Under the pieces are notes generated by a model, which worked only from the letters and a program-made list of their open reading frames with translations, searched no databases and was not told the origin of the DNA. Below are positions 4,531 through 13,799 of a stretch of 64,000 bases of DNA, piece after piece. The position numbers and the translations under genes were made by a program. Each line of letters opens with the position of its first letter. Within the stretch, counting starts at the first letter, position 1. The stretch spans positions 14,708 through 78,707 of the forward strand of contig JBIQJF010000005.1 in NCBI GenBank assembly GCA_044507675.1, written 5' to 3'. This DNA is from Opitutales bacterium. GTDB lineage: Bacteria > Verrucomicrobiota > Verrucomicrobiia > Opitutales > Opitutaceae.

Positions 4531-4707
4531 GGCGGCTGCACGGAGCATCAAAGCGACCCTGTTTCTGTCATTCGACGCCGACCAACGAAAGCTGGCCTCC
4601 AGCGCGAAATTGGCCGTCGGCCCGTAACCTGGCACCCATTCCAGTCCTTGAATTTCAGGTCTTGCGGAACGGTAAAAATTGACCCAAGTTCCGCGCTCGT
4701 TTGGTCC

Positions 4708-4782
4708 GGTGCGGTAGCCAAGTGGTAAGGCCGAGCTCTGCAAAAGCTCTATTCGGCGGTTCGATTCCGCCCCGCACCTCCA
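4708..4782 (+). tRNA. tRNA-Cys(GCA)
   Basis: Acceptor GGTGCGG/CCGCACC, anticodon arm GAGCT-CTGCAAA-AGCTC, GGTTCGATTCC T-loop, encoded CCA. Confidence 0.97.
4762..4782 (+). repeat. attL core (3' end of tRNA-Cys)
   Basis: CGATTCCGCCCCGCACCTCCA, identical to 12234-12254. Confidence 0.92.
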
Positions 4783-4838
4783 AATCGCAACCCCTCTGGG
4801 AATCAGAGTTTGCGATTCTGAAAGGTGTCAAAAAGCGG

Positions 4839-4862
4839 GAACGGACACCAAAACGGACACCA
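4839..4862 (+). repeat. Tandem GGACACCA repeat, putative integrase arm-type site (left)
   Basis: GAACGGACACCAAAACGGACACCA; 23/24 identical to 12114-12137. Confidence 0.75.
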
Positions 4863-4943
4863 GCTTTTCCCACTCCGGGAAGATTTGGCGTAACGGGAGG
4901 TAACTCGCCCGCTACCGCTAACCCAGCGGCTCCGTTTCCGGCT

Positions 4944-5120
4944 ATCCAAGGCGTCAGCCTGCACAGCTACCGCTACGCGTGGGCCGAACGAGCCAAGACC
5001 GCCGGCTACCCCGAGCGCTTCGCCCAGTTCGCTCTCGGCCACAACAGCAAGGCCGTCCATCGCGTCTACGCCAGGAAAGCGCAAGTCTCGTTCCTCGCGC
5101 TGGGGGACTACGAAAAGCGC
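4944..5120 (+). pseudogene. C-terminal stump of tyrosine recombinase/integrase
   Basis: LHSYR (HxxR), ALGHNS and HRVY (catalytic Tyr) motifs; N-terminal arm-binding and core domains absent. Confidence 0.85.
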
Positions 5121-5339
5121 GACCGCTGCACCGGTCATCCCAATTCCCGTATCGACCACCGATGCTTACACTGTAGGGCGGGGTCGCTGACCCTGCCAAG
5201 GTGGTCGCCGATTTCCACATCGGCGACTTCGGCTCCATGGGTGGAGCGACTTGACCCCAAGGCGCTTCTGGAGGTTTGGCTTCGGGAACCAGAGGGACTT
5301 TCACCTTGTCATACGGCCTAGTATCGCTTTGATATCACC

Positions 5340-5558
5340 ATGCCAAAAAAGCTGGCTGTCCTCCTTTCCGCCCTCGCTCGCGCCGGATTTATCAATCGGG
5401 GCGGCAAGGGCAGCCATCGCAACTACGAGCATCCTTGTGGCCACCGCATCACCGTCTCCGTGCACAAGGGCGAAGCAAAGCCCTACCAGCAACGGGACAT
5501 CGAAGAGGCGATTGCCGTTGCCGAGGCTTGGACCCCGCCAGGCGCGGACAAGAAGTGA
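5340..5558 (+). CDS. hicA: HicA-family toxin (mRNA interferase)
   Basis: 72 aa, GGKGSH motif, upstream of hicB. Confidence 0.85.
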   Translation: MPKKLAVLLSALARAGFINRGGKGSHRNYEHPCGHRITVSVHKGEAKPYQQRDIEEAIAVAEAWTPPGADKK

Positions 5559-5592
5559 CCCTTTCAGAACCCGAATCCGAACCCGAAAGACC

Positions 5593-5955
5593 ATGAAGAC
5601 CCGTAAATCATCCCATCTAAGCGCCGCTGCCAAAGCGGCTCGCTACATCAAATTCGTCGAATGGTCCGAAGCCGACCAAGTGTATATCGGCCGCTGCCCG
5701 GGACTCTTTGCCGGCGGTATTCATGGCGACGACGAGGCCCAGGTTTACAAGGAACTCTGCGATGTCGTCGCCGAGTGGATCGCCAACATCGAAAAGAACG
5801 GCCAGCCGCTACCTCCTCCGACCGCCGGAAAAAAATACAGCGGCCAGTTCGTGGTGCGCGTTTCTCCGGAACTTCACCAGCGAGCCTCCTTGAAGGCACT
5901 GATGCACGGCGAGAGTCTGAATCAGTTGGTCGCTCGCACGCTGGTCGAGGCCTAG
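5593..5955 (+). CDS. hicB: HicB-family antitoxin with C-terminal RHH
   Basis: VEWSEADQVYIGRCPGL (RNase H-like fold); YSGQFVVRVSPELH (RHH). Confidence 0.85.
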   Translation: MKTRKSSHLSAAAKAARYIKFVEWSEADQVYIGRCPGLFAGGIHGDDEAQVYKELCDVVAEWIANIEKNGQPLPPPTAGKKYSGQFVVRVSPELHQRASLKALMHGESLNQLVARTLVEA

Positions 5956-5985
5956 CACGTAGGCGGCCCCGCGAGGCGTCACAGC

Positions 5986-6405
5986 ATGAAATCTGCAGGG
6001 TTTAACTTCGCCCGACTGCCCAAGACCTACTCCGGTCTCGTTGCGCTTCACATGCCGCGTCCGATCCACGACAAGGTGGCCTACGACAACGCGGTGGAGG
6101 TCGTGCATGCCTTGGCCGGCCACAAGCTAAACCACGATCAGGACGACTACCTCGCCATCATGGCCAAGCTCGTCGAGGACTACGAAAGCGAGAACGTCGC
6201 GGAGCCGAAGCCGGTCAAGGGCATCGAGGCCCTGAAATTCCTGCTGGGGGAAAATGACCTTACCGCCGACGACTTGGGCGAGATCATCGGCGTCAACCGC
6301 TCCATCGCCTACCGCAACCTCAAGCGGGCCCGGAACCTCACCGCCGATCATGTCAAAAAACTCGCTGCCCACTTCGCCGTGAGCGCCGATCTGTTGCTCG
6401 CCTGA
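5986..6405 (+). CDS. higA: HigA-like HTH antitoxin, orphan
   Basis: PRPIHD..AY..A.E, LVEDYE, C-terminal XRE HTH and LAAHFAVSADLL; no higB upstream. Confidence 0.75.
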   Translation: MKSAGFNFARLPKTYSGLVALHMPRPIHDKVAYDNAVEVVHALAGHKLNHDQDDYLAIMAKLVEDYESENVAEPKPVKGIEALKFLLGENDLTADDLGEIIGVNRSIAYRNLKRARNLTADHVKKLAAHFAVSADLLLA

Positions 6406-6414
6406 CTGTTCCGG

Positions 6415-6466
6415 TGGAGGGTCGACCTCCCGGTCGACCGCGGCCCAGCGGGAGCCGGGCCCTCCA
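6415..6466. repeat. Inverted doublet of GGAG-tagged REP-like elements
   Basis: + copy GGAG-GG-TCGACC-TCCC-GGTCGA-CC-G (6416-6440); - copy GGAG-GG-CCCGGC-TCCC-GCTGGG-CC-G (6441-6465). Confidence 0.8.
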
Positions 6467-6479
6467 GTGGCGCAACGTT

Positions 6480-6807
6480 TTACACAGTGAGACTAAACTC
6501 CATTGGCTGGCCGATCTCCACCCGCGGTCGGGCCGTCTTGTTTTGGTTCTTCGTCCGCCAGTGCTGGCTCACCGCGTTGGTCATTTTTGCCAGCCAGCTG
6601 CGATCCTTAGTCAGTTCGAGCACATCCACCGCCGCGAAATACTTCACGCTGTTCGGTTGCGGGCGTCCCCAGCGGCTTGAGCAGCCGCGCCACCAGCCCC
6701 GGAACATCATGCGCCTGGCAGTTCAGCACCCAAGCCGTTTGCTCCGCAGTCAGCCGTGCCGGCAGTTGTCCGAAGAGGTTGAGGAAGCGTTGTTGGTCGT
6801 CTCGCAT
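6480..6807 (-). pseudogene. Frameshifted small putative DNA-binding (excisionase-like) gene
   Basis: MRDDQQRFLNLFGQLPARLTAEQTAWVLNC...LLKPLG in one frame appears to continue as NSVKYFAAVDVLEL...WRTKN in another; break near 6660-6690. Confidence 0.5.
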
Positions 6808-7233
6808 GGATTCAGTTGAAACCAGTTCCACCGCGCCAACAACATGCCGCACCCCACGAAATCGCGGTAGCTGCTCTCCCCTAAAAGCGGTAGCGGTCTT
6901 CCGTGGTTCGGTCGTCCGATGCGACGAAGAGTTGGGCAGGTCAGCGAACGGGAGTCGCTGAAAATGGCCTACGTTCGCGCGTTCGAATCTACCGTGATCG
7001 TGGTAGGAGATCACGGGCCCCTAAATGCGCGAAACATAGCGGCTCGGCTTCGCTGGGAGGGGCCGACGCGCGTAAAAGCGTGGCGCTCGCCGCCGCCCCC
7101 GTGCCCCCGGGTCGCGGCAACTAGTGCAAGAAAGCAATGCCCGAACGCGCTCTAGTCTGTCCATCGACTCGCCCATTTCACTGCGGAACCAACTCGGTTT
7201 GCATCGTATCGTGGAGCGGCGCAAACGCTAAGG

Positions 7234-10200
7234 TCACCCGCTCGCCGCGACGCCTCCACTGTCGCTTCGCTCAACGGTGTTCCACACGAAGCCTAAGTCC
7301 TCGAGCATACGGCGGCGTTCGGTTGTGAGCCGAGCCGATCGCCAGCGCTGAGTGTTCACCCAACGACCAAGCTTAAGATTCTCAGGCCAGCGCTGCGGCA
7401 CGTTGCAGTGACCGTGGACTCGCTTGAAGGCGACGAGCTGTGCGAACATGTCCTCCCAGTCCGTCTTGGAGGTGAAGCCCCAGACAAAGCCCAACGAATC
7501 CAGGCGTGCGATCCTCGATCGCATGATTTCGCGTCCAACCTTTCGATCTCGCCGCTGATTCCTGACCCAATTGCCGAGTGCGGGGTTCGCAGCATAGAGC
7601 AACGGGACATTCGTGTGCCCGTGCTCGCGCTTAAATGCCTCCAGGGCGGCGAACATCTTCTCCCACTTTCCTGTGGTTGGCTCCCAATCAAACCCAAGAT
7701 TGTCAAGTTGAGCCACGTATTCCGCGGCTAGTCGTGCTTCCCTCCTTGTGCGGCGCATCCTGTCGACCCATGCGGCCAGCCTACGATTTTTTAGCCAACG
7801 CTGCGGCACTCGGCAGTGGCCATATTCCATACGAAAATCTGTTAGCTGCGCTATCATGTCCGGCCATGTGTCCATCTCCGCCGCAGCGGCGCCTAACGGG
7901 ACCTGGGCCGTGGGCACGCTCCACGCGAATCCAAGCGCTTCGAGCTGCGCAATTCGGTCCGGCGACACGCGGTGCTGCTTCCTTGCCCGCCGTTGGACCG
8001 AGACCCAATTCGCCAATCTCGGGTTTCCATCCCAGCCCGACGGAACACGGCAGTGCCCGAACTGCTCCCGATACCTGCGCAGCTCACCGAGCATCGCCTG
8101 CCAGCGATCATCAAAGGTATTGGCTAATGCCTCGGGCGCGACACTTGAATTGATAGTCCAAACAAATCCCACCTCGTTGAGCGCTTTGATCCGATCAGCG
8201 CTGAGTCGCCCCTTCCGGAAGAAATAGCGCTGCGTGGAGACCCAATTTCCCAGCTTCGGATCGTCGGCGAACGCTTGCGGGACTCTGGTGTGACCATGCT
8301 CGGCAGCGAACCGCTGTAGCCGTGCGAGCATATCGCCCCATGGTTCGGAATTCGGGTGTCCCGTAGCATCCGGCGACCATGCGAATCCAAGCTCGTCCAA
8401 CGCGGCAATGCGCGGTGGCGACAGCAGGTTGTTTCTCCGAAAGTAGCGCTGCGTCCGAACCCACGTGCTCAATTGCGGATCCTTCTCCCATTTCCAAGGA
8501 ACCAAACAATCACCGTGCGCAGCGTGATAGTTCTTTAGCCTCTGCAACATCGCTTCCCAGCGTTCTCCGTCAGGCTGAAGCTTGAAGTCGATTCCGCGGA
8601 GCACCGTTTCCTTATCAGCTGCTAGGCGTCCCTTACGGTGCTGTCGCCGTATGGCGATAATCCAGCGGCCCAAGTCAGTATCCACGGCCGGCGTTTCGCC
8701 GTCACGCATGGCCGCCCTTAACTTCGGGAACATTTCGTCCCAACGCGCCTCCGCGGCTGACCATGCAAACCCCAACGCATCCAGCGAGCTCACTTGGTCT
8801 GCCGTCAGCTTATCGCGGCCCCGCAGTTTACGGACCTCGACTACCCAACGCGCCAGTGCCGGATTCGCGGACCATGAATCAGGAACGTGGCAATTCCCGT
8901 GCAATTTAAAGTAGGAGACGAGTGTCGCCCGCATTTCCTGCCAACTGGCACCATTGACGCCCGCACCATCAACCGTTTGCCGCCTCGCGCTCTTAGGCTC
9001 CCAAACAAATCCAATGGAATCGAGTAACTGGATTCGCTGCTCAGACAGGCGTCCGTGTCGGCGCAGCGAACGCTGGAGCGCTACCCATTCCTTCAGGCTC
9101 CGTGTCGCCTTGTCCGTCGCCGCAACCAGAGCAGTCCCATGAGTTTGAACATAGGCCTTTAGTTCATCCGCCCTTCGTCGCCAATGCGCTTCACTCCCGG
9201 GGGCCGTCGAATCCCATGGAAATCCAACTTCGCTTAATCGTCTCTCGCGCTCTGGATCGAGCTTCCCCGCTTTGCGTGCAGCACGCTGGGCCTGCACCCA
9301 ACCAGCGATCGACCTAACTTCTGGGTCATCACGCGCGAAGTCGGTCCGGCCGGTTTCTTCGCGATACTTGATGAACCGGGCAAGCTTTTCGTCCCAGTCG
9401 GCGGCGTCCGGAATAGCCCGCGGAACTTCCCATTCGAATTGGATCGAGTTCAGTAGTTCGACGTGACGCGCACTTACCCGGCCCTGTCGATACTTGTAGC
9501 GCTGAGCTGCTGCCCAATTCCCGAGGATTGGGTTATCTTTCCATTTTACCGGGACGCGCGTGTTGCCGAACCGTTCCTTGAATGCGCAGAGCTCTCGGAA
9601 GCGTTGGTCCCACGTTCCAATTCGCGCTTCCCATCTGAATCCAATGCGATTCAGAAGCGCGATCCGCTCCGCACTGAGTTCACCACGGGCGTTCAACGAC
9701 CGCTGCAACTTTACCCAGCGTCCAAGGACGGGGTAGTCGCGATTATTCCCGGGAACTTCGCAATGGCCGTGCTTCCCCTTGTATTCGGTTAGCGCAACGT
9801 AGTTCGTTCGCCATTCCGTGCTGTAGGGATCCCAAGTGAAGCGAATGCGGTCGAGCAGATCGATTTGCTCGAGGGTGAGGCGGCCTTTTCGCCTCTCGTA
9901 GCGCTGGGCAACGATCCAAGTCGCAAGAACCTTGTATTCTTTGGAGCGGATCGGAATGTCGCAGGTCCCATGCCGCTTGAAATAGGCAACTAGTTGCCCG
10001 TAGCGCAGCATCCACGGCTTACCCAAGGCGTCGACGCATGCCGCCGTGATTGATCGTTGCAGTTCGTCAAGCGACACCGACGGGCCGCAAATCTCCACGC
10101 GCTGACGGAACGCCGAATCGTCATAGCCACCCACTTCGCCGCGCTGGGTCTGCATCGCATCGATGCTCTGCGCCAGTAGGTCGTCATGCTCGCGGAGGCG

Positions 10201-12006
10201 GTTCAGGATGCTCCAAATGTCATCGAAATTCGCGCGTTTCACCGCATCTTCAATGCTCTCTTCACGGGCATGCTCGACATACAGGGGGACCAACACGTAA
10301 CCAAAGGATTTGCCGTCCGTGCGCCGAATTGCACGACCCGTTGCCTGGACAATATCAACCAAACTGCGCCGCGGACTAAGGAACGCCACCATGTCGACGC
10401 CCGGCACGTCGACACCTTCAGTCAGGCAGCGCGCGTTCGAAAGCAGTGCTTGGGACGCACCGGCAAACTCTCTAATGAGCTTCTCGCGATAGCCCGCGGC
10501 CATGGCACCGCTCACATGCGCGCACAGGAATCCCTGTAGGTGATTTGCCACACCTTCAGGTCCGCTGCTCGCGAACGATTCGGCCGATGCCACGCTGCTG
10601 TGAAACGAAAATATCCGCTGCACCCCGTATCGTTCTACGGCCGCCTTTAGCGCAAGCTGGTTGGCAACCTGCCGAGCACGGACACGGGAATTCTCAATCG
10701 CAACGACGCCACGCCGGAGCAGTTCATCCGTGACCATCGTTGAAGTAACTACAGAGATCACGACCTTGTAATCCGCGATGATTTTATCCGCGATCGCTCG
10801 ACTGAAGGGGAGCCGATAGACTACCTCGCCATACGCGTCGACGGAATCCATGGAGTAAACTGGTTCGTCCGTTTCGCGCGCAGTGTCTTCCCGAACCCGC
10901 ACATGTCTCGGTGTTGCGGTCAGGAATAATCGGCGATTGATCCGCAAACGCTGATCGTTCAGCGCAAGCGTGAACAAGCCGCCTTCTTGCCCGGCCGTCT
11001 TGTGTGCCTCATCGAATATGCCGAGACAGAATGCGGGCAAATCCTTCGTCGCAGCCGCGATCACCTCGCACGACTGATAGGTTGAGAACACAACCTTCAT
11101 TGCATCGCTCGGGGTAGCGAGAAAGCGACTCACTTCCTCCGCATCGGTTGTCACCGGAAAGTCGACATCCGCCTGCGTGACAACCAATGCATCCTCCTCC
11201 GGAACCACCGAGGTGTCAGAACAGACGCACCGGTAGGCAACAGCACGCTCGCCAAGCCACGCGTGAACGACTTGACGCATCAGTGACAACGACGGCACGA
11301 GCAATAGCACTGTCTTGCACTGCATGCGCTCAGCAACCCATAGCCCGACAAGCGTCTTCCCCGTTCCACAAGCCATCAATGCGGTCGCACGAGGTGCCTT
11401 GGAAAGGCCGCGAGTGACCGCTTCGATCGCCTCCTCTTGGTGCTTTCTGGGTTGTGCGCGGGTTCTCGTCCGTTCGGCGCCGTTGATCCAATCGCCCATG
11501 ACCCGAAGGTCCTCCGGGGTAAGCCGGTCCAAATCCGCACCGCGGACAAAAATGGTATCGGGACGTTCGTGCGCTTCTTGGACGAATTCATCACAATTCG
11601 TGAAGACGAGCCTTCTGCATCCCCTGTCTGATAGGGCAAAGAACGTCGACAGATCGCCCAACCGCAGTCGCGGTCGCCCAGTCCGGAATTTGACCTGATA
11701 GCAAGTTACGCCGTCGGCTGCCTCAATGGTGCCGTCGATCCCTTTATCCTTCGAGGGGAGCCGGAGTGACGATTGCAGTTTCACGGGGACCGTGTCGCAG
11801 GGCCAAACTGTTATCGCTTGTGCGATTGGCTGATTGGCGAGCCACGCTTCAGCGAATACCTCGAAAGCGCGCCCACGCTCCAACTCGGTCGCAAGACCCT
11901 CTATTGTCTTCTCGACGTCTGCGAACGAGGCCATATCCGACAACGAAATCTTTGTCGAAAACCACCGGGCCGCTGGATGCCGCGGAGATGATTGGGCCAT
12001 GGCCAC
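7234..12006 (-). CDS. Mrr-like nuclease + SF2 DEAH helicase (Type ISP-like core) + 13 helicase-associated (HA) repeats
   Basis: DKGIDG..YQVKF; MACGTGKT, FDEAHK, TATPR, LTEGVDVP, DIVQATGRAIR; 13 repeats of W..M/F..L...G...VP / W...QR / LGF.W. Confidence 0.92.
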   Translation of the reverse strand: MAMAQSSPRHPAARWFSTKISLSDMASFADVEKTIEGLATELERGRAFEVFAEAWLANQPIAQAITVWPCDTVPVKLQSSLRLPSKDKGIDGTIEAADGVTCYQVKFRTGRPRLRLGDLSTFFALSDRGCRRLVFTNCDEFVQEAHERPDTIFVRGADLDRLTPEDLRVMGDWINGAERTRTRAQPRKHQEEAIEAVTRGLSKAPRATALMACGTGKTLVGLWVAERMQCKTVLLLVPSLSLMRQVVHAWLGERAVAYRCVCSDTSVVPEEDALVVTQADVDFPVTTDAEEVSRFLATPSDAMKVVFSTYQSCEVIAAATKDLPAFCLGIFDEAHKTAGQEGGLFTLALNDQRLRINRRLFLTATPRHVRVREDTARETDEPVYSMDSVDAYGEVVYRLPFSRAIADKIIADYKVVISVVTSTMVTDELLRRGVVAIENSRVRARQVANQLALKAAVERYGVQRIFSFHSSVASAESFASSGPEGVANHLQGFLCAHVSGAMAAGYREKLIREFAGASQALLSNARCLTEGVDVPGVDMVAFLSPRRSLVDIVQATGRAIRRTDGKSFGYVLVPLYVEHAREESIEDAVKRANFDDIWSILNRLREHDDLLAQSIDAMQTQRGEVGGYDDSAFRQRVEICGPSVSLDELQRSITAACVDALGKPWMLRYGQLVAYFKRHGTCDIPIRSKEYKVLATWIVAQRYERRKGRLTLEQIDLLDRIRFTWDPYSTEWRTNYVALTEYKGKHGHCEVPGNNRDYPVLGRWVKLQRSLNARGELSAERIALLNRIGFRWEARIGTWDQRFRELCAFKERFGNTRVPVKWKDNPILGNWAAAQRYKYRQGRVSARHVELLNSIQFEWEVPRAIPDAADWDEKLARFIKYREETGRTDFARDDPEVRSIAGWVQAQRAARKAGKLDPERERRLSEVGFPWDSTAPGSEAHWRRRADELKAYVQTHGTALVAATDKATRSLKEWVALQRSLRRHGRLSEQRIQLLDSIGFVWEPKSARRQTVDGAGVNGASWQEMRATLVSYFKLHGNCHVPDSWSANPALARWVVEVRKLRGRDKLTADQVSSLDALGFAWSAAEARWDEMFPKLRAAMRDGETPAVDTDLGRWIIAIRRQHRKGRLAADKETVLRGIDFKLQPDGERWEAMLQRLKNYHAAHGDCLVPWKWEKDPQLSTWVRTQRYFRRNNLLSPPRIAALDELGFAWSPDATGHPNSEPWGDMLARLQRFAAEHGHTRVPQAFADDPKLGNWVSTQRYFFRKGRLSADRIKALNEVGFVWTINSSVAPEALANTFDDRWQAMLGELRRYREQFGHCRVPSGWDGNPRLANWVSVQRRARKQHRVSPDRIAQLEALGFAWSVPTAQVPLGAAAAEMDTWPDMIAQLTDFRMEYGHCRVPQRWLKNRRLAAWVDRMRRTRREARLAAEYVAQLDNLGFDWEPTTGKWEKMFAALEAFKREHGHTNVPLLYAANPALGNWVRNQRRDRKVGREIMRSRIARLDSLGFVWGFTSKTDWEDMFAQLVAFKRVHGHCNVPQRWPENLKLGRWVNTQRWRSARLTTERRRMLEDLGFVWNTVERSDSGGVAASG

Positions 12007-12113
12007 GGTCTAGTGGCACGAGGCCATTTCGCAATAGTGCATCATACGTCGTGAGCGGAAGCTGATTTCAGTGCGGCGGAACGTGCGGTTAAGACCGCGC
12101 CAATATTGACGGC

Positions 12114-12137
12114 GAACGGACACCAAACCGGACACCA
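12114..12137 (+). repeat. Tandem GGACACCA repeat, putative integrase arm-type site (right)
   Basis: GAACGGACACCAAACCGGACACCA. Confidence 0.75.
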
Positions 12138-12233
12138 ACCAGACGAAAAAGCAGTTTTGGAGTAAGGTTAGTATAGGCTTGGTTCACCCGGGGAAGCGGC
12201 CACGTTGCCGCTGCAAATCACGATGATAGCCGC

Positions 12234-12254
12234 CGATTCCGCCCCGCACCTCCA
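12234..12254 (+). repeat. attR core
   Basis: Exact copy of tRNA-Cys 3' 21 nt. Confidence 0.92.
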
Positions 12255-12387
12255 CGCTGAGGCGAGATGAGGAGGACCAAAGTCGAGCATGAATGCTCAA
12301 AACCCTGCCCCGGATACCCTTGGGCGGGCGGACAAAGGCTAAAAGTTTCACCGGATGTGCCGATTCTGGGTGGTTATGGCAGCCACG

Positions 12388-12885
12388 ATGCAAATGAGCC
12401 GGACCCGCGCCCTGCTGGCCAAGCGGCCCGACGTGAAGAACGAGGACTTCTTCAAGGCACTGTGCCTCGACACGTCTGGCGATCTCGACGTGGACCAAAC
12501 GAGCGTCTGGACCTTTGCTCCGGACCGCAGCCGGATTGACTGCCATTGCTGCTTCGACGCCTTGGCCGAAACCTTCTCCAGCGGCCAGTCGCTGGGTCAG
12601 AAGGACTGTCCCCGCTACTTCCGAGAAATCGTGGAGGAGAGCTTCGTCTGTGCGGACAACGTGACCGACCATCTCGCCACCCGCGAATTTCTCGAAACGT
12701 ATTTCAAGCCCAACGGCATTGTGTCCCTGCTGGACTTCGTGCTGCACCACGACGGCGAGCCCTACGGCATCATCTGTTGCGAAAACCGCCGCGAACCCCG
12801 CATCTGGCAGGAATCCGATCGCAACTACCTGCGCTCGCTGGCGACCCTCACGTCGTTCCTGTTCCTCCCCGCCAGCCGGCACTAA
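12388..12885 (+). CDS. Stand-alone GAF-domain protein
   Basis: C-terminal SLLDFVLHHDGEPYGIICCE..REPRIW pattern of GAF; start codon uncertain (12355/12388/12394). Confidence 0.7.
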   Translation: MQMSRTRALLAKRPDVKNEDFFKALCLDTSGDLDVDQTSVWTFAPDRSRIDCHCCFDALAETFSSGQSLGQKDCPRYFREIVEESFVCADNVTDHLATREFLETYFKPNGIVSLLDFVLHHDGEPYGIICCENRREPRIWQESDRNYLRSLATLTSFLFLPASRH

Positions 12886-12908: not shown

Positions 12909-12935
12909 CGGCTCGTCGGGACGACTCGCCCTACC
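12909..12935 (-). repeat. GTAG-tagged REP-like palindrome
   Basis: Minus strand GGTAGGGCGAGTCGTCCCGACGAGCCG with imperfect stem. Confidence 0.6.
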
Positions 12936-13010
12936 CACCCAAGGGCTCGAGACGCCTGCTCCAGCCACTTCGCGCTAGACTCGCCGCCCGGCTTCCCGAT
13001 TAATCGCGGT

Positions 13011-13799
13011 ATGGGCTGCACCGTTTTCACCATCGCCAACCAAAAGGGCGGCGTCGGCAAGACCACCACCGCCGTCAATCTCGCGGCGGCGCTGGCCGAG
13101 CGCAAAATTCACACCCTCGTGGTGGATCTCGATCCGCAGGCCAACGCCACCAGTGCCCTCGGCGTGGAGAAACAGGAGGGCAAGAGCCTCTACGGTCCGT
13201 TGCACGGCGAAGGCAGCGCCTTCGAAATGCTCACGCCCACCGCCTGGCCCCACCTCGCCCTCATCCCTTCGGAGCAGGACCTCGCGGCCATCGAGATCGA
13301 GCTGGCCCAGCAGCAAAACTACCTCATGCGCCTGCGCACGGTGATCGAGCCGCTGCGCAACTCCGGCGGTTATCGCGCCATCATCATCGATTGTCCGCCC
13401 GCGCTCGGCATGCTCTCAATGAATTCCCTCGCCGCCGCCGACCATCTCCTCATCGCGCTCCAGTGCGAATACATGGCCCTCGAGGGCCTTGGCCAGATTC
13501 TCAAGGTCGTCGATCGCCTCAAGCAGGCCGGCGTGAACTCCTCGCTCGATGTCGGCGGGATCGTCATGACGATGTTCGACAGCCGCACCAACCTCGCCAA
13601 GCAGGTGGTGGACGAGGTGAAACAGCACCTGCCCGACAAGATTTTCCAGACGCTCATCCCGCGCACCGTGCGCCTGAGCGAGGCCCCCAGCTTCGGCAAG
13701 CCCATCTTTGCCTACGACCCTCACGGCCCCGGCGCCAAGGCCTACCGCGACCTCGCCAAGGAAGTCGCCGAGCGTTTCGGCCTGAAGAGCACGGAGTAA
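13011..13799 (+). CDS. parA: ParA/Soj-family ATPase
   Basis: NQKGGVGKTT deviant Walker A, VDLDPQAN, IDCPP, LSEAPSFG. Confidence 0.9.
   Translation: MGCTVFTIANQKGGVGKTTTAVNLAAALAERKIHTLVVDLDPQANATSALGVEKQEGKSLYGPLHGEGSAFEMLTPTAWPHLALIPSEQDLAAIEIELAQQQNYLMRLRTVIEPLRNSGGYRAIIIDCPPALGMLSMNSLAAADHLLIALQCEYMALEGLGQILKVVDRLKQAGVNSSLDVGGIVMTMFDSRTNLAKQVVDEVKQHLPDKIFQTLIPRTVRLSEAPSFGKPIFAYDPHGPGAKAYRDLAKEVAERFGLKSTE

Follow-up and report, generated by a model that had tools for sequence, protein, structure and literature searches.

The window, the whole 64,000-nucleotide stretch of DNA that was analysed, contains a 7.5-kb island (4783-12254) next to parA. A tRNA-Cys(GCA) gene on the forward strand (4708-4782) is the integration target of this island; its 3' end makes up attL, an exact 21-nt direct repeat (4762-4782), and the second copy of this repeat, attR, is located at 12234-12254. 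The empty site was observed in congener G001, where the tRNA-Cys gene lies 86 nt from parA. The forward strand of the island carries a tyrosine integrase remnant (4959-5120), a complete hicAB pair (5340-5955) consisting of the toxin hicA (5340-5558) and the antitoxin hicB (5587-5955), and an Xre-like HTH ORF with a weak family match (5986-6405). Only the C-terminal catalytic stretch of the integrase is left, as judged by a weak match to profile positions 130-169 of 172 (E 0.0038), and an intact homologue of it is present in congener island L118. These features agree with an earlier note on this DNA, in which the gene studied here had been described as cargo of a tRNA-integrated island beside toxin-antitoxin genes.

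The gene occupies 7234-12006 on the reverse strand and encodes an Mrr nuclease, an SF2 translocase and 13 HA repeats in one ORF, which is uninterrupted over 1590 codons counted from GTG 12006. The database gene call begins at ATG 11934 and gives a product of 1566 aa, which is too short when compared with a start based on the 'PRHP' segment. As this segment, found at the extreme N-terminus of the nuclease domain, is conserved, translation is expected to start at ATG 12000 or GTG 12006, and on sequence grounds ATG 12000 is the probable start. The sequence was found in metagenome DNA runs only, with no RNA evidence. That the gene might be a pseudogene, or the decaying cargo of a dead island, was ruled out by the intact ORF and motifs together with a dN/dS of about 0.1.

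The N-terminal domain (11467-12000, reverse strand) was assigned to the Mrr family of PD-(D/E)xK nucleases by alignment with LlaBIII, an AF2 model and Foldseek. Its match to Pfam Mrr_cat_2 was sub-threshold (E 0.016), and the nuclease was identified by phmmer instead. Motif I is represented by E49 and motifs II/III by D87-x-G-x-D91 ... Q104-x-K106 (nt 11689-11748). Residues E49, D87, D91, Q104 and K106 align with E38, D74, D78, Q92 and K94 of LlaGI, respectively, each of which abolishes or impairs cleavage when mutated in that enzyme. Among 24 diverse homologues D87, D91, Q104 and K106 were invariant and E49 was present in at least 90%, and the nuclease motif was found in approximately 110 of 120 matches. 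The Mrr-like motif described in the earlier note is therefore present with all five LlaGI-critical residues and is kept family-wide.

The nuclease is followed by an SF2 helicase-like ATPase resembling the dsDNA translocase of Type ISP enzymes (10147-11466, reverse strand), as indicated by Pfam, phmmer, motifs and Foldseek. Pfam matches were obtained to ResIII (aa 185-367) and Helicase_C (aa 461-562). The Walker A sequence GTGKT is located at aa 214 (nt 11353-11367), the DEAH box at aa 332 (11002-11013) and motif VI, QATGRAIR, at aa 554 (10324-10347), and motifs I, II and VI were found in nearly all of 120 matches. When searched with phmmer, aa 28-619 aligned to residues 15-656 of LlaBIII (4xqk) with an E of 2.4e-56, and 5ffj was matched with an E of 7e-48. 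An AF2 model of aa 3-792 (pLDDT 85, pTM 0.80) gave LlaBIII 4xqk as the top Foldseek match (E 8e-35, TMq 0.64, 813 columns). In the earlier note, too, the helicase motifs had been said to follow those of Type ISP enzymes. A conserved helical linker (aa 621-655; 10042-10146, reverse strand), seen both in the homologue alignment and in the AF2 model, connects the motor to the HA array. This linker occupies the position of the coupler in Type ISP enzymes, the likeness being one of position. Sequence homology to LlaBIII stops at its residue 656; by structure, the 813 columns aligned with Foldseek reach into HA1-2.

The C-terminal 935 aa consist of 13 HA domains and a short tail, with no target-recognition domain. 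The tandem HA (PF03457) three-helix domains, each of 61-80 aa, extend over aa 656-1575 (7282-10041, reverse strand) and were delimited by Pfam and AF2; the same number of repeats had previously been placed at about 7270-10014. The Pfam HA profile matched in 13 stretches (E 3.2e-215, 697 bits against a gathering cut-off of 28.4), 13 three-helix units were predicted by AF2, and one repeat matched the solved HA domain 2kta. The array has a pI of 10.2 and a net charge of +48. With respect to its overall shape, a rigid solenoid was not supported, as the AF2 model of the array had a pLDDT of 77.6 but a pTM of 0.27 and several low-confidence linkers, and a Foldseek search of the whole array against the PDB returned nothing significant (best E 0.16).

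Every repeat keeps the core W1/W33/Q37-R38/GF-W (also given as W/L/G/VP/W/QR/L/GF-W), and the repeats of orthologues are collinear and individually conserved. To look for a TALE-like code, conservation between repeats was compared at each repeat position with conservation across orthologues. No position was both repeat-specific and conserved between orthologues, the variable positions varying in both dimensions, and such a code was not supported. Modular recognition by the array, as the earlier note had it, is likewise not supported by these data, in which collinear repeats share one invariant core, lack code-like positions and show a dN/dS of about 0.1. We know of no demonstrated modification-reading role for HA domains. 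DNA binding by HA is attributed to NMR work (PMC3637686) as cited in two other papers. Fusions of HA domains to PLD nucleases have also been reported (PMC12191111), in connection with restriction enzymes that depend on modification. Arrays of HA domains are a feature of TniQ in telomeric transposons as well.

No methyltransferase family was matched by the protein (Pfam, NCBIfam) or by any ORF of the island, in line with the earlier statement that the island has no methyltransferase gene. A PADLOC profile, REase_MTase_IIG, was matched at positions 18-652 of 1646 only. Modified-base readers (SRA, EVE/PUA, Mrr_N, iEndoIII and the like) are also absent from the protein, HA being its only C-terminal module. 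A conserved partner or a separate DNA methylase was sought among 250 ORFs lying up to 5 kb from homologues at 29 loci, and at 7 annotated loci; none was listed in these 36 loci. The gene can therefore be regarded as stand-alone, as had been proposed.

At least 371 matches to the Mrr-SF2-HA family were obtained from a one-genome-per-species collection, distributed over many phyla, among them Verrucomicrobiota, Planctomycetota, Chlamydiota, Proteobacteria and Actinobacteria. These proteins form a clade of their own (97/97), separate from Type ISP enzymes and from a TtrA-like clade (100/99), and the phylogeny of the family is incongruent with taxonomy. The same architecture was also recovered from MAG contigs of giant viruses, and from Chlamydiae and Babeliales with an obligate intracellular life. 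That the gene is phage-borne was rejected, as it was essentially absent among 50,697 phage records, and matches in IMG/VR were mostly to nuclease-less helicase-HA proteins or to giant-virus MAG contigs. The earlier designation as a candidate new defence system was overstated in that databases have a name for the architecture ('Helicase associated domain protein'), which is very widespread, and that its nuclease-less TtrA relatives have a non-defence role. What did hold is that PADLOC-DB v2.0.0 does not catalogue it as a system of its own; partial matches only, to RM, PbeA and other helicase models, were returned. The architecture is not novel, and any novelty would be confined to its function as proposed below. 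No functional study of the family was found in the literature searched.

The gene is both accessory and mobile. No orthologue was found in any of 24 congeners, the sole strong match among them being 36% identical; in the stretch examined, this match shows a motif of the Type ISP style and lacks HA. A copy with 86% nucleotide identity is present elsewhere; homology ends at the borders of the gene and the flanks of that copy are absent from this genome. Neither flanking inverted repeats nor an Acido-Lenti-1-like Rfam match was detected around the gene or this copy, and a hairpin inverted-repeat cassette was rejected for this lineage. As judged from these alignments, the family is moved horizontally as a single gene. 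Comparison with the 86%-identical copy gave dN/dS values of 0.09 for the nuclease, 0.08 for the motor and 0.12 for the HA array, and values of 0.06-0.08 were obtained against a 75%-identical copy; by this measure every module is under purifying selection.

When compared with known systems, the closest counterparts are the Type ISP enzymes LlaGI and LlaBIII, which are likewise single polypeptides with an N-terminal Mrr nuclease, the same five functional residues and a homologous SF2 translocase. While those enzymes continue with a gamma-class N6-adenine methyltransferase and a target-recognition domain, the protein studied here has 13 HA domains instead, as the extent of the LlaBIII alignment (15-656) and the domain assignments confirm for the arrangement first proposed. 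Since it contains no methyltransferase, self-protection by methylation is not possible for this protein. ATP-dependent Type IV enzymes such as SauUSI (PDB 7CLG) resemble it in combining a nuclease and an SF2 motor with no cognate methylase, and E. coli Mrr in having an Mrr-type nuclease, also with no cognate methylase; both attack DNA bearing a foreign mark. In contrast to the Mrr-type nuclease and HA array described here, SauUSI has a PLD nuclease and a C-terminal domain that reads modified cytosine, and its similarity is confined to the generic motor. The PLD-HA fusions of the END-nuclease study (PMC12191111) similarly join a restriction-type nuclease to HA as a presumed DNA sensor with no methylase, but their nuclease belongs to another superfamily, they have no motor, and the study gives them as a listing.

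We propose, at a probability of roughly 0.5, that the gene product is an endonuclease made of one polypeptide, which translocates with ATP and goes back to the restriction part of Type ISP enzymes, in which the HA array here replaces the methyltransferase and target-recognition domain, and that it acts as a barrier to foreign DNA. The HA array would hold or load the enzyme on DNA, as suggested by its charge, the cited HA NMR work and its place where the methyltransferase and target-recognition domain would be. By homology to LlaGI and LlaBIII the SF2 motor would then translocate along dsDNA with ATP, and by analogy with Type ISP the Mrr nuclease would cut upon blocked translocation or the collision of two enzymes. 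Without a methylase, the safety of self-DNA would depend on which DNA the array or the loading step accepts; candidate substrates are modified DNA, following a Type IV-like logic, or the ends or structures of entering DNA. Such an enzyme may keep out the DNA of phages, plasmids or competing mobile elements by means of a single gene, which is accessory and spreads horizontally; the present copy is cargo of a tRNA-Cys island that has decayed.

Attack on foreign DNA is the role we infer as most likely for the family as a whole. If the family does restrict foreign DNA, a common single-gene immune enzyme would have been missed by defence catalogues, the question would arise how a Type ISP-type motor nuclease spares self-DNA without methylation, and a first function would be defined for the HA domain, so far an orphan DNA-binding module. 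In favour of this role are the relationship to Type ISP enzymes with validated anti-phage activity, the variable presence among close relatives combined with a mobile-island location (a generic feature of defence genes), the PIN toxin-antitoxin pairs adjoining 2 of 7 annotated homologues, the hicAB pair in the island, and integrases or recombinases near several of 29 loci. Against it, the neighbours of homologues were mostly housekeeping or metabolic in Pfam tallies, and known defence genes were sparse, a plain tally over the 250 neighbouring ORFs giving scattered PADLOC matches, mostly to 'PDC' candidates. No self-protection mechanism could be identified, and the array displayed neither the diversifying selection nor the shuffling that a specificity module engaged in an arms race might show. 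An anti-phage role is also less obvious in giant viruses, intracellular Chlamydiae and Babeliales.

Among HA-helicases, genetic evidence exists solely for the TtrA proteins of Streptomyces, which act in the conjugal transfer of linear replicon ends. A rather unlikely reading, although the foremost of the alternatives, is that the gene encodes a DNA-processing or transfer factor of this kind for a mobile element, in which the array would read the element's own DNA or ends and the motor and nuclease would serve transfer, maintenance or integration. The motor of the 'Helicase associated domain proteins' of Streptomyces is related to the one described here (28-35% identity over aa 163-600). These proteins have 3-4 C-terminal tandem HA repeats, reside on mobile replicons and are encoded by the first gene at linear plasmid ends, and TtrA has been described as a conjugation helicase at telomeres, to which the HA arrays in TniQ of telomeric transposons can be added. 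An Mrr-SF2 protein with 8 HA repeats lies near the end of a Rhodococcus linear plasmid, megaplasmids of P. aeruginosa encode a helicase bearing 6 HA repeats, and the copy studied here is on an integrative island. However, the TtrA-like proteins have no nuclease and start directly with the motor, their Walker A lying at aa 36-46, and they fall into the separate clade noted above, whereas the protein described here has a nuclease of 180 aa and is encoded in a tRNA island by parA. For the most part the family consists of solitary genes on chromosomes, away from any conjugation or telomere genes, and in the present island the integrase has been lost, yet the gene is under strong purifying selection. 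Were the family not defensive, the link to TtrA would suggest a general DNA-end or DNA-transfer function.

A broader version of the barrier proposal, which we regard as unlikely, is that Mrr-SF2-HA(n) proteins make up a major class of restriction enzymes, so far overlooked, that work without a methylase. The ordered 13-unit HA array would then be an extended DNA reader that distinguishes host from incoming DNA with no host modification. Its targets could be a hypermodified base, DNA termini or ends bearing a terminal protein (hinted at by TtrA), or a long periodic or strand-biased feature, and linear-plasmid transfer helicases, telomeric-transposon TniQ proteins and giant viruses may have put the same device to further use.

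It is improbable that the protein is instead a helicase-nuclease of DNA repair or recombination, acting for example on stalled forks, crosslinks or breaks as optional equipment and not as an immune gene. Weak profile similarities to RadD, XPB, UvrB and Hef were observed, and XPB and RadD structures follow Type ISP in the Foldseek ranking, but the profile similarities are generic to SF2 and far below family cut-offs, and the specific relatives are restriction enzymes. One Streptomyces relative adjoins sbcCD, the family occurs in intracellular bacteria and in giant viruses carrying repair genes, and the missing arms-race signature of the array would fit such a role, although the patchy strain-level distribution, island location and gene-only horizontal transfer are atypical of repair functions. 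A selfish or addictive element, whose nuclease-motor would help nothing but itself to spread or persist, in the manner of homing or post-segregational systems, is very improbable. It would explain why the gene moves alone: the 86%-identical copy shares nothing past the gene borders and has no recombinase or flanking repeat. Toxin-antitoxin modules adjoining the gene in several loci would also fit. However, there is no antidote partner or methylase to make loss lethal, neither a target-site signature nor flanks of the homing type could be found, and long-term purifying selection on a 1590-aa protein in many phyla speaks for a function at the level of the host or the element.

The tRNA-Cys hotspot itself was occupied by other cargo in related genomes. 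A congener island at this site carries the PADLOC candidate pair PDC-M21A/B, and a sister island carries a rhamnosidase, indicating that the hotspot is not defence-specific.

The open reading frame at 7234..12006 (minus strand) comprises 1590 open codons. Pfam searches placed ResIII at aa 185-367, Helicase_C at aa 461-562 and 13 HA repeats (PF03457; E 3.2e-215; units of 61-80 aa) at aa 656-1575 (nt 7282-10041), in agreement with the coordinates and description in the earlier note, although Mrr_cat_2, which was also expected, matched the N-terminal 180 aa only below threshold (E 0.016). The public gene call for an identical protein begins at ATG 11934 and gives 1566 aa. Since an N-terminal 'PRHP' segment upstream of this ATG is conserved in homologues across phyla, the gene should start at ATG 12000 (or GTG 12006), which makes the database call too short.

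In a search of PDB sequences, aa 28-619 aligned to residues 15-656 of LlaBIII (E 2.4e-56), and the second Type ISP restriction-modification enzyme, LlaGI, was matched at E 7e-48. Residues E49, D87, D91, Q104 and K106 align with LlaGI E38, D74, D78, Q92 and K94; in LlaGI, cleavage is abolished by alanine at D74, D78 or K94 and impaired by alanine at E38 or Q92 (PMC2790908). For aa 3-792, AlphaFold2 with 31 homologues as input gave a confident model (pLDDT 85.1, pTM 0.80), whose top Foldseek PDB match was DNA-bound LlaBIII (4xqk_A; E 8e-35, TMq 0.64, 813 columns). While the nuclease and SF2 motor are common to LlaBIII, LlaGI and this protein, profile searches detected neither a methyltransferase nor a target-recognition domain (TRD) in the latter, which instead carries the 13 HA repeats at its C-terminus. 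Their absence, as first proposed from sequence, is borne out by the PADLOC Type IIG/ISP model, which was matched over the first 652 of 1646 positions only.

The HA repeats follow the consensus W-x6-L-x2-[YF]-x4-G-x3-VP-x8-L-x2-WV-x2-QR-x8-L-x7-L-x3-GF-x-W, and AlphaFold2 predicted 13 three-helix bundles for the array, in a model of low pTM (0.27) with flexible linkers; a Foldseek search with the whole array gave no match. With a pI of 10.2 and a net charge of +48 the array is strongly basic, in contrast to the slightly acidic nuclease and motor. Against an 86%-identical copy, dN/dS was 0.09 for the nuclease, 0.08 for the motor and 0.12 for the array, with each individual HA repeat below 0.25; against a 75%-identical copy it was 0.06-0.08. 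Orthologous arrays of 13 units are collinear, with HA1, HA3 and HA12 most conserved and HA10 and HA11 least. Conservation between repeats was compared, position by position, with conservation across orthologues. The structural core and the Q37-R38 pair were common to all repeats, other positions varied both among repeats and among orthologues, and this comparison yielded no repeat-specific position conserved between orthologues. A TALE-like or other modular recognition code predicts such positions and is not supported. The proposal of modular repeats holds only in part, for units that are individually conserved. Overall, the array resembles a long-established, ordered and constrained scaffold, putatively poly-DNA-binding, rather than a specificity module undergoing rapid reshuffling.

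With respect to distribution, no orthologue was found in any of 24 species of the genus; the sole strong congener match is 36% identical, its 'IQCK' motif is of the Type ISP style, and the stretch fetched contains no HA repeat. With a cut-off of E<=1e-10, a word-indexed search returned over 2500 proteins, of which the best 120 all had the same architecture (875-1832 aa), the named members among them being called 'Helicase associated domain protein'. Across a collection with one genome per species, at least 371 matches were confirmed, in Verrucomicrobiota, Planctomycetota, Chlamydiota (Parachlamydiales, Simkaniaceae, Waddliaceae), Babeliales, Gemmatimonadota, Nitrospira, Gallionellaceae, Deltaproteobacteria, Bifidobacterium, Colwellia and others. 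The nuclease motif is conserved across the family, as are motor motifs I, II and VI, while HA copies vary from 3 to 17 per protein and protein length tracks their number (r = 0.99). The suggestion of a new defence system can be kept only in part, as databases already annotate the Mrr-SF2-HA architecture and it is widespread; no description of its function was found in the literature searched.

A maximum-likelihood tree of the motor region resolved three clades: Mrr-SF2-HA (97/97), Type ISP (100/100) and Streptomyces TtrA-like (100/99). Branching within the first does not follow taxonomy, with Bifidobacterium, for example, grouping with Deltaproteobacteria and Verrucomicrobia, which indicates that horizontal transfer has been frequent. 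That the gene moves alone is directly visible in contigs L106-L108, where an 86% nt-identical copy is homologous to the window over 12001-7280 only, and its flanks (NADH-dehydrogenase-type and beta-lactamase-fold genes) have no match in this genome.

The final 21 nt of tRNA-Cys(GCA) (4708-4782) recur exactly at 12234-12254, and this direct repeat bounds an island of 7.5 kb (4783-12254). Of a tyrosine integrase it retains a C-terminal remnant (~4959-5120), matched weakly by Pfam at profile positions 130-169 of 172. A complete pair of hicA (5340-5558) and hicB (5587-5955) is present as well, alongside one HTH ORF and a few others that lack matches, so that the nuclease-helicase is, as initially described, the only large cargo of a tRNA-integrated island with toxin-antitoxin neighbours. 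A 24-nt direct repeat, GAACGGACACCAAAACGGACACCA, containing a tandem ACGGACACCA, lies just within both island ends (4839-4862 and 12114-12137; 96% identical) and is plausibly an integrase arm-type binding site retained after integrase loss.

The tRNA-Cys site is an insertion hotspot whose cargo differs among congeners. In G001 only 86 nt separate tRNA-Cys from parA and the site is therefore empty; the G007 island has its integrase intact and also carries the PADLOC candidate pair PDC-M21A/B, and G009 has a GH106 rhamnosidase at the site. A Verrucomicrobia MAG carries a 75% nt-identical gene between an att-like repeat and tRNA-Cys, with different co-cargo. Relative to parA, tRNA-Cys and the island segment are inverted in G009 and G007 as compared with the window (4650-4946, 12959-13786). 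Between attR and parA lies a GAF-domain ORF of 176 aa (12355-12885), which adjoins parA in G007, is elsewhere in G009 and is missing from that position in G001. A ~27-nt sequence between this ORF and parA (12909-12935) has copies in five other contigs of the genome and, in several congeners, occurs at up to ~17 places per genome (90-100% identity); it resembles short dispersed repeats of the REP/MITE kind.

The best-supported reading, to which we give a probability of about one half, is that the protein is a methylase-independent, restriction-like translocating nuclease serving as an accessory barrier to foreign DNA. This reading draws on the protein's specific homology with the restriction half of enzymes proven to act against phages, on catalytic residues that the family conserves, on strong purifying selection and mobility as a single gene, and on its setting in an island with toxin-antitoxin genes; the steps of the biochemistry, and how self would be told from non-self, we infer. 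PLD-nuclease/HA fusions have been listed among candidate modification-dependent enzymes (END-nuclease study, PMC12191111).

A TtrA-like function in the transfer or maintenance of mobile DNA is unlikely, though the foremost of the alternatives. TtrA has been described as a conjugation helicase that is located at telomeres and bears HA domains in tandem, and TniQ of telomeric Tn7-like transposons also carries HA arrays (bioRxiv 10.1101/2024.11.13.623437). Streptomyces accounted for 384 of 715 plasmid records matched, and its proteins match the TtrA type; the gene is the first at a linear plasmid end in two of three plasmids examined and adjoins sbcCD in the third. These proteins share motor and HA repeats with ours but begin at the motor, lack the nuclease, have 3-4 repeats rather than 13 and form a separate clade. 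A nuclease-bearing member does occupy a TtrA-like location: on a Rhodococcus qingshengii linear plasmid (L001), Mrr+SF2+8HA lies 12-16 kb from the end, with a NACHT-domain protein of 1086 aa encoded two genes away. P. aeruginosa megaplasmids (L002) encode a nuclease-less helicase of 885 aa with 6 HA repeats, conserved on large plasmids (~115 Pseudomonas plasmid records) and a long-branch sister of the Mrr-SF2-HA clade. In IMG/VR, Mrr and SF2 occur with 3-5 HA repeats in contigs of giant-virus MAGs, and with 2-5 when further viral contigs of low GC are included (GC 0.24-0.31; L131, L132, L148, L135, L140, L141, L151, L153), and the family is essentially absent from cultured phage genomes. Optional DNA repair is less probable again. 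Among the PDB structures matched by the model, SF2 motors of repair and remodelling, as well as SauUSI, ranked far below LlaBIII. A purely selfish element is the least probable. No hairpin-repeat cassette surrounds the gene or its 86%-identical copy.

Neighbourhoods were surveyed at 7 loci with precomputed annotation and 29 more (250 ORFs within 5 kb), with no neighbour gene conserved across them. No DNA methyltransferase occurred in the 7 annotated loci or the listed tallies of the 29, the rRNA methylase MraW being the sole methyltransferase family. The majority of neighbours were housekeeping or metabolic genes. PIN toxin-antitoxin pairs were present at 2 of the 7 annotated loci; tyrosine and serine recombinases, IS110 transposase and Bro-N also recurred, and PADLOC neighbours were scattered (SoFic, several PDC candidates, one Type I S subunit and a DRT-like RT-helicase, by raw tally). 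An FRG-domain gene, which may be a recurrent neighbour, lies directly upstream of the homologue in a Verrucomicrobia MAG (L012, 8501-9157) and of a relative on a Planococcus plasmid (L105, 3197-3997) that consists of nuclease and motor without the HA array.
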